Assembly: GCA_016840465.1 (NCBI GenBank)
Contig: JAEOSH010000005.1
Coordinates: forward strand, 30,001 to 62,000
DNA: 32,000 nt
Direction of reading: 5' to 3'
Source: Candidatus Baldrarchaeum yapensis
GTDB taxonomy: Archaea; Asgardarchaeota; Baldrarchaeia; Baldrarchaeales; Baldrarchaeaceae
The notes under the pieces are model-generated. The model saw only the letters and a list, made by a program, of their open reading frames with translations, had not been told where the DNA came from and did not search any database. A program made the translations under genes and the position numbers. This document shows positions 23,241 to 29,798 of the stretch, piece after piece; position 1 is the stretch's first letter; every line of letters starts with the position of its first letter.

Positions 23241-23296
23241 GGCTCAGACGTCGCAGGCTTCCTCATCGATCAGGCTAGCAATCCCTCATCATTGCC
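23241..23296 (-). ncRNA. C/D-box 2'-O-methylation guide sRNA (sRNA-A)
   Basis: Minus strand reads GGCA-[C ATGATGA]-GGGATTGCTAGC(12)-[D' CTGA]-TCG-[C' ATGAGGA]-AGCCTGCGACGT(12)-[D CTGA]-GCC. Terminal GGC/GCC stem; intergenic. Confidence 0.88.
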
Positions 23297-24998: not shown

Positions 24999-26567
24999 TC
25001 AAATGCCTAATTCTTGCCTTATTTTCTGCACAATTCTTCCTTCCCTTATAAGGTTCGATACGACCTCAAGATCTCGTGATAATGACCTATCGTCCTCCAA
25101 TGCACTGACATGTCTTCTTATCTCTTCATAAGCTATCTTTGTACCACTCCCTAATAGTTCCTTGCCTCCTCTCAGATCGATTCCCTGCGTTGCTGCTATC
25201 ATTTCAAGAGCTATTATGTAGCGTGTGTTACTTATTATTTGAGCAGTTCTTCGCGCTGAAACCAGCCCCATGCTAACAACGTCCTGATTTTCGGCATTAG
25301 TGGGTATGGACTTTATGCTTATCGGGCATGCAAGGCCCTGATTTTCAGCAACCAACGAAGTTGCTACGTACTGCACACCCATGAACCCACATCTAAGCCC
25401 CGGGTTTGATGAGACTAAGAATGGCGGTAAACCTCTATTTGTCATTTCATTCAAGAGAATAGCAAGTCGTCTTTCGGATAATAGGCCAACCTCCGTCGCG
25501 GCTATTGCTGCAAAATCCATGGCCATGGATATGTGTTGCCCATGAAAGTTTCCACCGTGGTACACCTTTTCGTTGTCTGCATCGATCAGTGGGTTGTCCG
25601 ATGCTGAGTTCAGTTCTGTCTCCACAATGCTCCTTACGAATTTTAGTGCATCAAGTGAGGCTCCTAGCACCTGCGGTGTACATCTGAGGCTATATACGTC
25701 TTGGAATTTCTCCTCCATCTTCTCGACTGATCCCTTTACTTCCTTTATGAAATCTTCGTACCTCCTGACGAGTTTACTTCCATCGAGGAGAGTTTTTATG
25801 TACCTTGCGATTTCCCTTTGTCCCTCATGAGGTCTGACATTATGTATGAAATCCTCAAACGGATCAATGAACCCCCTCATAGCCTCTATTGTTAATGCCG
25901 CAGCAATGGCCGCATTCTTTATTAACATCTCGAGGTCATAAACCACAAGCGCTGCGATTCCTGTCATTGCAGATGTTCCGTTGATCAGAGCAAGCCCTTC
26001 CTTATAGCTTAATTTTAGTGGCTTTAAATTCTCGTTTTTCATAGCTTCTGCTGCTTTTACTATTTTCCCACGATATTCGACAAACCCTTCTCCCATCATT
26101 GTTAGAGCCATATGCGCTAATTGCGTGAGGTCCCCACTCGCTCCAACCGATCCTATCTCGGGAATTACTGGATGGATTTTCCTGTTAAGCATTTCAATTA
26201 AGAGTTTCAGGACCTCCGGCCTGACACCGGAATGCCCCATAGCAAGAACGTTGGCGCGTACAAGCATCATTGCTCTTACATATTCTGTGGGAAGAGGATT
26301 CCCCACTCCGGATGCGTGACTCCTTATTAAATTCTCTTGCAGAACTTCGGCATCCTCAGCCGGTATCACGCAGCTTATCATCGGTCCGAATCCTGTGGTT
26401 ATTCCGTACACTATTTTCCCTTCATCAACGAATTTCCTAACAGTCTTCCGGCATTTCTCAACTCTCTTCAACGCCTCATCGGAAAGCATTACATTTGCGT
26501 GGTTCCTTGCAACTGCAACTACGCGCTCTATCGTTAAACTCTTACCATCCACTACCACGGCGCTCAA
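24999..26567 (-). CDS. MIO-dependent aromatic amino acid ammonia-lyase/aminomutase (HAL/PAL/TAL/TAM superfamily; TAM/TAL-like motifs)
   Basis: YGITTGFG, ENLIRSHASG, MIO triad GASGD, GLALINGT, YSLRCTPQV, DNPL, GGNFHGQ, NQDVVSMG. The TTG at 26567 follows SD GGTGAT; the ORF is open to 26576. Confidence 0.93.
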   Translation of the reverse strand: MSAVVVDGKSLTIERVVAVARNHANVMLSDEALKRVEKCRKTVRKFVDEGKIVYGITTGFGPMISCVIPAEDAEVLQENLIRSHASGVGNPLPTEYVRAMMLVRANVLAMGHSGVRPEVLKLLIEMLNRKIHPVIPEIGSVGASGDLTQLAHMALTMMGEGFVEYRGKIVKAAEAMKNENLKPLKLSYKEGLALINGTSAMTGIAALVVYDLEMLIKNAAIAAALTIEAMRGFIDPFEDFIHNVRPHEGQREIARYIKTLLDGSKLVRRYEDFIKEVKGSVEKMEEKFQDVYSLRCTPQVLGASLDALKFVRSIVETELNSASDNPLIDADNEKVYHGGNFHGQHISMAMDFAAIAATEVGLLSERRLAILLNEMTNRGLPPFLVSSNPGLRCGFMGVQYVATSLVAENQGLACPISIKSIPTNAENQDVVSMGLVSARRTAQIISNTRYIIALEMIAATQGIDLRGGKELLGSGTKIAYEEIRRHVSALEDDRSLSRDLEVVSNLIREGRIVQKIRQELGI

Positions 26568-26587
26568 TCCCATCACCGATCCACAAG

Positions 26588-26610: not shown

Positions 26611-26722
26611 AACATGATGGGCACAGTACATGATATGCCCAGCACCTCCATACACGTAGCCGACATTGGTCCCCAACGTGGATGGAACCGCTGAAGTTCG
26701 ACTGCTGGAGGATAAACTGGAG

Positions 26723-27367
26723 ATGAGAAAAAGTCGAGAGGATCTGATAAATGTAATCCTTGTCCTAACGGAGAATATGAGGATAAAGGAGTTGGTTGAT
26801 GCTCGTCTAAGAGAATTTAAGGCAATGAAAGAAAAAAGTTCGCAGGACTGGTTCATTGAGTTGTGTTTTTGTATATTGACCGCAAATTCGTCGGCAGAGG
26901 CTGGAATACGTGCTCAATGGATGATAGGAGATGGGTTTCTGCATCTCCCCAAAGAACAGTTAAAACAGCTTATTAAGCGCGCAGGGTGTAGGTTTTACAG
27001 AAGAAAAGCTGAGTATATAGTGGTTGCACGCAAGTATGCAGATATTCTCAAACAGGAAGTTACATCTTACGATAATGAGACCGATGCTCGGGATTGGCTC
27101 GTCAAAACATTTAAAGGAATCGGCTATAAGGAGGGCAGTCACTTTCTTCGAAACGTTGGTTACGATAACGTTGCAATTCTCGATAGGCATATTCTTTCCA
27201 TTCTCACAGAGTTCTCGCTAATAGATAGTATACCAAAACACATGACTAGGAGAAGGTACTTTGAGATAGAGCGCGTGTTCATAAATTTAGCTGATAATAT
27301 CGGGATTTCACCCGCCGCACTCGACCTTTACTTGTGGTATCTAAAAACAGGCAAGATTCTTAAGTGA
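26723..27367 (+). CDS. ogg: 8-oxoguanine DNA glycosylase / N-glycosylase-DNA lyase (archaeal Ogg2 type)
   Basis: ELCFCILTANSSA, RFYRRKAEYIV, HhH KGIGYKEGSHFLRNVG, catalytic AILDRHIL, C-terminal LDLYLWYLKTGKILK. The ATG at 26723 follows GGAGG. Confidence 0.93.
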   Translation: MRKSREDLINVILVLTENMRIKELVDARLREFKAMKEKSSQDWFIELCFCILTANSSAEAGIRAQWMIGDGFLHLPKEQLKQLIKRAGCRFYRRKAEYIVVARKYADILKQEVTSYDNETDARDWLVKTFKGIGYKEGSHFLRNVGYDNVAILDRHILSILTEFSLIDSIPKHMTRRRYFEIERVFINLADNIGISPAALDLYLWYLKTGKILK

Positions 27368-27371
27368 AGAT

Positions 27372-27433
27372 GTATCAGTTGACTGTTTACTCGTCATCCA
27401 GCGCATGTCAGCAAAGGGTGTGCTCATCATCGT
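27372..27433 (-). ncRNA. C/D-box 2'-O-methylation guide sRNA (sRNA-B)
   Basis: Minus strand reads [C ATGATGA]-GCACACCCTTTG(12)-[D' CTGA]-CATGCGCTGG-[C' ATGACGA]-GTAAACAGTCAA(12)-[D CTGA]. The D guide is antisense to the conserved LSU rRNA motif GACUGUUUA. Confidence 0.9.
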
Positions 27434-27533
27434 GTCTAGAATACTCTTAAACGGTAATAAATGTTTTCCTCCGTGAGCCAGTATCAAAAGATTATTTTAG
27501 TGGAAAGGGTGAAGTGATGAGGGCGTGGCGCCG

Positions 27534-28211
27534 ATGAGGTGCCCTTACTGCGGTAACGAAATTAGTTATCCGAACGCGAGATTCTGCCCGTATTGCGGGA
27601 GAAGTCTGCCGGGGGATACTGCGGGAACGGTGGTTCAATCAGCTATTCAAATAACTCCCGGAGGGTTACTTGATCCCCGTAGATCCTTTTACATCATCCA
27701 TGAGAAGTATTGGGACATGGGATGGGGCGATATTTACGACGAGTATGGACGCATAATAGGAAAAATGGAAAGAAAAATATTATCGCTTCGTGGGGAGATA
27801 AGACTTGAGGAGTTGGACGGGCGTGTAGTTGGTAAAGTTGTGCGGAAGATTATTGCAATAAGGCCTACTTACGACTTATTGGATCCCCAAGGAAGGCTAC
27901 TGGCCCGCATGAGGAGGAAGTTATTGGCTATACTCAGGCCGGTGCTCTGGCTCGAGGATAGAAATGGGAATAAACTGTTGAAGGCACAGGGAGACTTCTT
28001 AGGCTTTAATTTCAAAATTTATGATGTTGCAGGAAGGTTAATCGCCGAAGTTAACAAATTAGACGCGTTCAAGGATTTATTTCTTGGAGGAACGATATTT
28101 GATTTCAGCGATAAATACGCGCTAAGAATATATGACCCACGGGTCAGTCGGCTCTTACTGCTGGGGTTTGTTATAGCAATAGATAATGCAGTTCATGACG
28201 TCAGAAAATAA
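27534..28211 (+). CDS. Zinc-ribbon + LURP-one/Tubby-C2 (scramblase-like) domain protein
   Basis: CPYC...ARFCPYCG zinc ribbon, then repeated beta units (DIYDEYGRIIGKMERK; GDFLGFNFKIYD..GRLIAEV) and terminal helix LLLLGFVIAID. Start is ATG 27534 or GTG 27525. Confidence 0.8.
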   Translation: MRCPYCGNEISYPNARFCPYCGRSLPGDTAGTVVQSAIQITPGGLLDPRRSFYIIHEKYWDMGWGDIYDEYGRIIGKMERKILSLRGEIRLEELDGRVVGKVVRKIIAIRPTYDLLDPQGRLLARMRRKLLAILRPVLWLEDRNGNKLLKAQGDFLGFNFKIYDVAGRLIAEVNKLDAFKDLFLGGTIFDFSDKYALRIYDPRVSRLLLLGFVIAIDNAVHDVRK

Positions 28212-28238
28212 CACTACTTGCTATGGAGAGTTGATCAC

Positions 28239-29798
28239 ATGGTATTAGATGTTCATGAAATAACAAAAGCCGCTGAAAAAGACTACGAGAGAGCCTGGAT
28301 AGAATATTCAGAAAAGATCCCAAGGGGATCTACTGGTTTTAAGTTGAAGAATAAAGCAAAGCGACATCCGGTTTTTGAAATCATACAGAAATTTAGGGAG
28401 ATATTACTAGAGATGGGATTTGAGGAGATAATATTGCCAGTAATAGTTGAGGAGGGGATTGTTTACCGGGAGTATGGGCCCGAGGCTCCAGTGATTCTTG
28501 ATAGAATTTTTTATCTGGCAACACTCCCGCGCCCGGACATAGGGATAAGTCGGGAAAAAGTTAATAAGATCAGGGAGATAGTGCCCGGGTTTGATAGGGA
28601 GGAGGAGTTAAAGAGAATATTCAGAGAATACAAGAGAGGGGGAATAGAGGCTGATGAGTTAATAGAGTATATGGTTAAGGATCTTGGAATACGGCAGGAA
28701 CAAGCGACGAAGATAATAGATGAAGTTTTTCCGGAGTTGAAAGAGTTAAAACCTATTCCCACAAAGTTGACCTTAAGGAGCCATATGACGGCACTATGGT
28801 TTCCTGTGCTGGAAGCAATGCAGTATCGTGAACCCCTACCCATTCAACTCTTCACCATAGGAGAGAAGTTTAGAAGAGAGCAAAGACTCGACGAGACTCA
28901 CCTATACTCCTCCTATACCGCGTCGTTGGTAATAATGAATGACGAATTGGGTCTTGAAGATGGAAAAAATGTATGTCGCGAGATAGTCAATCGACTTGGC
29001 TTTTCGGAGGTAGAATTTAGACTCAAAGATGTTACATCGAAGTATTATGCCGCAGGAACAGAATTTGAGGTCTTTGTCAGGCATCCCAAAACGGGAGAAT
29101 GGATAGAGATTGGAGATGGCGGAATGTATAGCCCCGTTTCTCTTGCAATGTTCAACATAGAGTATCCGGTTTTTAATGTCGGATTCGGAATAGAGAGAAT
29201 TGCGATGATAATAACGGGAGAAACTGATGTCAGAAGGCTGGTGTATCCATACTTTTACACGGAACCTCAGTTCTCACCGGAAGATTTGGCATCTATGCTC
29301 TCATTTATAAAATCACCGAAAACCAGAGAGGGCGAGATGCTTGCAAACGCAATAGTGGATGCCGCAGTAAGGCATGCTGATGAAAAAAGTCCAGCTGAGG
29401 TAGTTGCATGGAGGGGGAGAATCTTGGGAAAAAGGGTGACAGTTACGATATGGGAGAGAGATCCTGGGGTCAAATTGCTGGGGCCCGCTGCACTTAATGA
29501 GGTATGGATTGTAAATGATACAATTATAGGAGTTCCGCCTTCACAAAGACCTGAGAATGGTTACTATACGGGAATAAGATATATAGATGGAATTGCTAAA
29601 AGAGCCGCCGCAGAGGCGGAAGAGATCGTAAGGAGAGGAGAAAAGGAGTTTTCCATGAGGGTAAGGATTGTCAGAGGACTTTCTGATATAAATTTAAAGT
29701 TGCAAAAGGCGGCATTACATTACATAACATCTAAGGGCAGTAAGATAGATATAAGAGGGCCTGTGTTCGTAGGAATAACCGTAAAAGTTGATGATTGA
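28239..29798 (+). CDS. sepS: O-phosphoseryl-tRNA(Cys) synthetase (SepRS)
   Basis: HPVFEIIQKFRE..LEMGFEE, VYREYGPEAPVILDRIFYLATLPRPDIG, LRSHMT, FRREQ, WIEIGDGGMYSP, NVGFGIERIAM, LLGPAALN. Confidence 0.93.
   Translation: MVLDVHEITKAAEKDYERAWIEYSEKIPRGSTGFKLKNKAKRHPVFEIIQKFREILLEMGFEEIILPVIVEEGIVYREYGPEAPVILDRIFYLATLPRPDIGISREKVNKIREIVPGFDREEELKRIFREYKRGGIEADELIEYMVKDLGIRQEQATKIIDEVFPELKELKPIPTKLTLRSHMTALWFPVLEAMQYREPLPIQLFTIGEKFRREQRLDETHLYSSYTASLVIMNDELGLEDGKNVCREIVNRLGFSEVEFRLKDVTSKYYAAGTEFEVFVRHPKTGEWIEIGDGGMYSPVSLAMFNIEYPVFNVGFGIERIAMIITGETDVRRLVYPYFYTEPQFSPEDLASMLSFIKSPKTREGEMLANAIVDAAVRHADEKSPAEVVAWRGRILGKRVTVTIWERDPGVKLLGPAALNEVWIVNDTIIGVPPSQRPENGYYTGIRYIDGIAKRAAAEAEEIVRRGEKEFSMRVRIVRGLSDINLKLQKAALHYITSKGSKIDIRGPVFVGITVKVDD

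Follow-up and report, generated by a model that had tools for sequence, protein, structure and literature searches.

A probable dual-guide box C/D sRNA predicted to target two sites in domain IV of the 23S rRNA of Candidatus Baldrarchaeum yapensis

Dual-guide box C/D sRNAs were reportedly described in archaea by Omer et al. in 2000. A terminal stem is common among archaeal C/D sRNAs and is not obligatory, as many of them lack one. The Asgard archaea are the closest known relatives of eukaryotes, and our literature search found no C/D sRNA catalogue for this group. Archaeal dual-guide C/D sRNAs carry four boxes and two 12-nt guides and follow the N+5 rule (PMC4644070; PMC6009581), and the locus described here is like them in these three respects. 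It also resembles them in its box-to-box length of 56 nt, in its closely spaced sites within one rRNA domain and in a probable TATA-like promoter of its own. Unlike the dual guides compared, it has no terminal stem and has a 10-nt D'-C' spacer. The mechanism of the C/D RNP as it is known is unchanged by this finding. The sRNA is an ordinary representative of an RNA family that is very well known, from a lineage that has been little studied. All positions below, unless another contig or rRNA is named, refer to the window, the whole 32,000-nt stretch of DNA that was analysed.

A search of Rfam at gathering score gave no match for the sRNA. Below this threshold, 27374-27434 aligned end to end with archaeal C/D families, and the best of these was sR11 (25.3 bits, E 0.0056). 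The sRNA is not a member of that family (RF01150, gathering score 39), nor of sR4 (RF01125), for which it scored 19.3 bits against a gathering score of 50 and only the C-D' half aligned. The sR11 consensus D guide and the host D guide have AACAGUC in common, in the same register to box D, and the host D' guide is similar to the consensus D' guide of sR4, GCACAUUCUUUU. These likenesses suggest that in other archaea the same two rRNA sites may each be served by an sRNA of their own; unlike sR11 and sR4, the host carries both guides on one RNA. No guide with ACAGUC was present among the 489 sRNAs of seven species in PMC4644070, and full-text literature searching with the strings of guides and targets brought up unrelated papers only. 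The Pyrobaculum sR21 guide, which ends in CACCCUUUG-CUGA, is a candidate look-alike. Methanopyrus sR30, with a guide ending in CCCUUUG, was considered as the same guide and dropped, since it is assigned to 16S in the paper.

The sRNA is complete and lies on the minus strand at 27375-27430 (Table 1). We consider it very probably a genuine dual-guide box C/D sRNA, the class proposed in the initial annotation, and this is borne out by four boxes, two guides and the pairing with 23S rRNA given below. The boxes and the guide lengths were read directly from the DNA. Both guides are exactly 12 nt, as had been claimed, and the box-to-box length is 56 nt. The description of the boxes as canonical slightly overstated the case: the C' box is UGACGA, one deviation from the consensus UGAUGA. 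The spacer between D' and C' is long: of the five other sRNAs in the host genome that fit the strict pattern, four have a spacer of only 3-5 nt. The strict four-box pattern matched the 2.27-Mb genome 6 times and none of 10 block-shuffled genomes, so the architecture of the sRNA is not a chance match.

Table 1. Features of the sRNA locus, with positions in the window.
Feature	Sequence or description	Position	Strand	Basis
Probable archaeal promoter	purine-rich BRE-like GGAAAAC, then TATA-like ATTTATTA	27455..27469	-	read from sequence, inferred
Box C	AUGAUGA	27424..27430	-	sequence and strict-pattern match
D' guide	GCACACCCUUUG, 12 nt	27412..27423	-	sequence; pairing scan against host 23S
Box D'	CUGA	27408..27411	-	sequence
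D'-C' spacer	10 nt	27398..27407	-	sequence
Box C'	AUGACGA, C replacing fifth-position U	27391..27397	-	sequence and strict-pattern match
D guide	GUAAACAGUCAA, 12 nt	27379..27390	-	sequence; pairing scan against host 23S
Box D	CUGA	27375..27378	-	sequence
Five-U run	downstream of box D, within the 3' end of the convergent ogg ORF	27343..27347	-	sequence

The element is located in a 157-nt gap between two plus-strand ORFs. The upstream ORF, at 26666-27367 (+), is an Ogg glycosylase gene (Pfam Ogg-HhH, 217 bits), and the minus-strand sRNA converges with it, as first described; the end of box D is 8 nt from the last base of the ogg stop codon. No terminal stem was found next to boxes C and D, where the flanks CACG and UACA do not pair. 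The sRNA showed no stable fold of its own and no competing secondary structure (folding z-score -0.33, from a program that cannot model k-turns). Weak folding is expected, since the guides must stay single-stranded. The DNA occurs in hydrothermal-vent and sediment metagenomes, and none of the public runs listed as containing it is an RNA run. Metagenome contigs from four runs were identical across the sRNA and are hence uninformative on constraint.

The TATA-like element ends 24 nt upstream of box C, at the distance expected. Of the five other strict-pattern C/D sRNAs of the genome, three also have an A/T-rich box, which ends 23-26 nt upstream of box C. This arrangement fits a transcript that would start just upstream of box C. 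The U-run downstream of box D is a possible archaeal terminator, from which a precursor might be trimmed back to box D. A scan for sigma-70 promoters and intrinsic terminators returned nothing; such a scan does not apply to archaea. The protein machinery is encoded in the host genome, which has an adjacent pair of Nop5 (258 bits) and fibrillarin (349.9 bits) genes as well as two L7Ae-family genes (108.6 and 84 bits).

The host assembly contains a full 23S gene of 3165 nt (contig C59:1031-4195; 2883 bits to RF02540), in which target sites were located by a pairing-aware scan. Each guide had one outstanding 23S site. The complementarity to host 23S that the initial annotation had expected was found for both guides, at 10 Watson-Crick pairs each. 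Positions 2-11 of the D guide form 10 uninterrupted Watson-Crick pairs with LSU 2014-2023 (target UGACUGUUUA), and its N+5 nucleotide pairs with C2017 (G:C2017, Watson-Crick). Positions 2-11 of the D' guide likewise form 10 uninterrupted Watson-Crick pairs with LSU 2051-2060 (target AAAGGGUGUG(U)), position 1 adds a G:U wobble with U2061, and the N+5 nucleotide pairs with G2054 (C:G2054, Watson-Crick). Complementarity and register were thus observed directly, and the register is the same for both guides: the box-adjacent nucleotide is unpaired and the N+5 pair is Watson-Crick. In an alignment of the host 23S with E. coli rrlH, gapless over the target region, C2017 corresponds to E. coli C1774 and G2054 to E. 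coli G1811.

These positions agreed with the initial annotation for the D guide and departed from it for the spacing of the two sites. A D target near E. coli 1773-1780 had been predicted, and the host site aligns with E. coli 1771-1780; the N+5 register had been placed on the C of GAC, which is C2017. For the D' guide, a target CAAAGGGUGUG(C/U) had been proposed. A 23S target does exist and 11 of the 12 nt were right, and the host reads GAAAGGGUGUGU. The two targets had been described as adjacent, with the D' target directly 5' of the D target and the methylations 10 nt apart. The order is reversed, as the D target lies 5' of the D' target on 23S; 27 unpaired nt separate the duplexes at 2014-2023 and 2051-2061, and the predicted sites are 37 nt apart in domain IV. 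The continuous string CAAAGGGUGUGUGACUGUUUAC that followed from the earlier arrangement is absent from the host 23S, and exact genome searches for either predicted target 11-mer returned the sRNA gene itself only.

From the sequence, C2017 opens a short CUGU/GUAG helix, and G2054 is a 3' partner in a CCC-GAAA-GGG tetraloop stem, in the pair that closes the GAAA tetraloop. We take the CUGU/GUAG helix to be helix 65 and the GAAA-tetraloop hairpin to be helix 66, after the E. coli secondary structure. The SNORD31 site of human LSU (LSU-3606; PMC5027482) presumably falls in the same general region, judged by its offset, and no equivalence is claimed. A 10-bp core anywhere in rRNA was reached by 0.3% of random 12-mers from the host genome, and shuffles of the two guides reached such a core at 0.7% and 0.03%. 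Given the 0.3% rate and two matches 37 nt apart, the 23S pairing is far beyond chance. Most rRNA dual guides aim at sites within 100 nt of each other (PMC7994747), and the 37-nt distance fits this published rule (PMC7994747; PMC4644070).

The contig that carries the 23S gene comes from a MAG of 100 contigs, and its mis-binning is in principle possible. The 16S on this contig is only partly assembled (model positions 706-1467). The host 23S has 3165 nt compared with 2987 positions in the archaeal model, and its G+C content is 65% compared with 46% for the genome. The length and G+C content of the gene suggest possible insertions or expansion segments and a thermophilic lifestyle.

The D guide was searched for in 400 genomes of the phylum with a pattern made of a C/C' box, AACAGUC in register and a D/D' box. 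Eight matches were obtained (loci L090-L097), in four of the seven genomes of family f31 and four of the five of family f16. Seven of these were exact, and the one in genome G306 had a single mismatch, in a box (CCGA). The remaining one-mismatch matches had no sRNA context and were as frequent as in the reversed-pattern control. In an alignment of the eight sRNAs, the boxes and guide positions 2-11 were invariant and positions 1 and 12 varied; these are the two positions that are unpaired in the host. The comparison provides a natural example of selection on exactly the 10 paired guide positions.

The guide core of f31 and f16 differs from that of the host at one position (UAAACAGUCG in f31/f16 versus UAAACAGUCA in the host), with the N+5 nucleotide unchanged. 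The difference is matched in the target: host guide position 11 is an A opposite U2014, and the f31/f16 guide has a G where their 23S has a C (A:U to G:C). For genome G303, sRNA and 23S come from the same genome, which makes this a same-genome test of covariation. Conservation and covariation of the D guide are therein directly observed. The arrangement of the guides differs between the lineages. The f31/f16 sRNAs carry the D-type guide in the C/D' slot, whereas in the host it occupies the C'/D slot and is partnered with the G2054 guide. Their partner D guides are family-specific and unlike the partner guide of the host; the f31 partner matches 23S about 190 nt further downstream with 10 pairs, and the f16 partner about 165 nt further downstream with 10 pairs and 2 G:U. 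The same guide can thus be moved between slots with a new partner, as already described in Crenarchaeota.

Closer relatives were represented in the collection by only four same-order genomes, the others being related at phylum level. The D guide was not found in the four sister-family MAGs (82-91% complete), though one has an identical target, and a looser D-guide pattern gave no excess over the reversed-pattern control in the same four genomes. A D'-type guide was present in this sister family, f2, in which three of the four genomes contain the box-plus-guide pattern UGAUGA-CCGCACCCUUUU-CAGA. The guide is in the C'/D slot and pairs with LSU 2050-2060 in the same register, with N+5 at G2054. 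Its partner guide pairs with LSU 2082-2090. An alternative 10-bp match for the f2 guide was found at host LSU 586-595; the neighbouring partner site is tentatively taken as favouring G2054. In the only 23S available for f2, both target sites read exactly as in the host.

The f2 sRNA (L127:186-271, L128:1441-1526 and L129:1441-1526) has a GGGG/CCCC terminal stem, a non-canonical D box (CAGA) and a degenerate D' box (CUGC). With a D'-C' spacer of about 25-30 nt, its internal loop is much longer than is usual among archaeal C/D sRNAs.

The orthologous guides that the initial annotation had suggested searching for in other archaea were found in part, as the D-guide core in f31 and f16 and a similar D'-type guide in f2; the whole two-guide sRNA of the host was found in no other genome searched. 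BLAST of the 75-nt sRNA against 40 relatives gave chance-level short matches only and no homologous sRNA. One 15-nt exact match, in genome G001 (L011), was rejected as chance: it had no boxes and no synteny with the window genes. A search of genome contigs with the Ogg protein recovered distant homologues only (at most 53% identity, including Promethearchaeota MAGs) and no syntenic locus, and an exact-protein look-up was empty.

In its composition, the host sRNA appears to bring two older guide modules together in a new combination. Re-pairing of guides has already been described for crenarchaeal sRNAs (PMC4644070; PMC7994747). We tentatively propose a lineage-specific event of this kind, as a possibility that falls short of probable, in which a module for the C1774 site (as in f31/f16) and a module for the G1811 site (as in f2) were joined so as to bracket the helix 65/66 junction in one RNP. 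If this were true, several small-genome lineages of the phylum would share Cm at the C1774 equivalent as a conserved mark, one that has no counterpart in the seven-species reference set of archaeal guides. Exchange of modules between C/D' and C'/D slots would also be directly traceable in these genomes.

The complementarity and register observed lead us to predict that the sRNA directs Cm2017 and Gm2054 in domain IV of 23S. An independently transcribed RNA of about 56-62 nt, the expression of which we infer from the sequence, would form a box C/D RNP together with L7Ae, Nop5 and fibrillarin. Binding of the D guide to 2014-2023 would bring C2017, the first pair of helix 65, into the fibrillarin active site for 2'-O-methylation, and G2054 would be 2'-O-methylated likewise when the D' guide is bound to 2051-2061. 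On the rRNA, the targets follow one another antiparallel to and collinear with the guides of the sRNA, so that one sRNP could hold both sites. Both might be held simultaneously, and the 27 nt between them, which comprise the loop of helix 65 and the tetraloop hairpin's 5' strand, would then loop out. In the bound state, helix 65 and the tetraloop stem would each have one of their strands sequestered by the sRNP, and it would therefore probably act on nascent, unfolded pre-rRNA; it may also help to order the folding of the helix 65/66 junction. Two specific, testable 2'-O-methylations follow, and the sRNA would be one well-supported entry for the still unwritten methylation-guide catalogue of Asgard archaea.

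A folding effect of this kind could also be the main function. The sRNA would then form a real C/D sRNP that serves mainly as an rRNA-folding chaperone and clamps nascent 23S on both sides of the helix 65/66 region; at one or both sites, methylation would be absent or incidental. The guides would sequester strands of helices that form later (C2017-U2020 of helix 65 and G2054-G2056 of the tetraloop stem), and the partnering of guides varies by lineage, so local tethering may be what is selected. Such a role has been proposed for dual guides in the literature (PMC4644070). However, the exact N+5 register is found in the host, in f31/f16 and in f2, as expected if the methylated nucleotide matters, and both N+5 pairs are Watson-Crick. 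We regard a mainly chaperone role as unlikely; the chaperone reading is itself compatible with guided methylation of C2017 and G2054.

In another reading, the main role of the sRNA would be antisense regulation of the mRNA of the convergent ogg gene, or action on some other RNA (tRNA or mRNA), with the 23S matches secondary. If the primary transcript extended as far as the U-run (27343-27347), it would be antisense to about 25 nt at the end of ogg, and the 10-nt target cores recur elsewhere in the genome, three times for D' and twice for D. These extra occurrences do not exceed our chance estimate for a 10-mer, which is roughly 4 per guide over 2 x 2.27 Mb. Relatives with the same guide show no link to ogg and their loci are unrelated, and tblastn with the flanking proteins was empty at the one relative locus tested (L011, where the guide match is itself probably chance). 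Conservation follows the rRNA target and not the neighbouring gene, and we hold this explanation to be very improbable.

That short boxes merely came together by chance in an intergenic spacer, with no functional RNA, would agree with the shortness of the boxes, the lack of a terminal stem and the Rfam result at gathering score, but is barely credible in view of the empty searches of ten shuffled genomes, the matches of both guides to 23S, each with a chance of 0.3% and lying within 37 nt of one another, and a guide core that is conserved and covaries with its target across families.

A second complete C/D sRNA was observed in the window at 23244-23292 on the minus strand, composed of AUGAUGA, 12 nt, CUGA, a UCGA spacer, UGAGGA, 12 nt and CUGA. 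Its best rRNA matches were weaker, at 9 Watson-Crick and 2 G:U pairs, with LSU 2609 and position 126 of the partial 16S. Four more strict-pattern C/D sRNAs are present in the host genome (G000), all on the minus strand, at C58:7132-7182, C69:2137-2185, C72:4256-4309 and C74:17453-17499, and several of these have 10-11-bp matches to 23S. The C72 sRNA has a 10-nt D'-C' spacer and a UGACGA C' box, both as in the sRNA at 27375-27430.

Among the neighbouring genes, the ORF downstream of the gap that holds the sRNA (27525-28211, +) encodes an N-terminal zinc ribbon and a LURP-one-related domain (LOR, PF04525; 35.9 bits). The LOR family, which is related to the tubby/scramblase fold, is best known in plants. 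The flanking gene at 24999-26576 (-) encodes an aromatic amino-acid ammonia-lyase (PF00221, 645 bits), and the one at 28218-29798 (+) a tRNA synthetase of class II whose core is of the PheRS-alpha type (PF01409, 159.5 bits).
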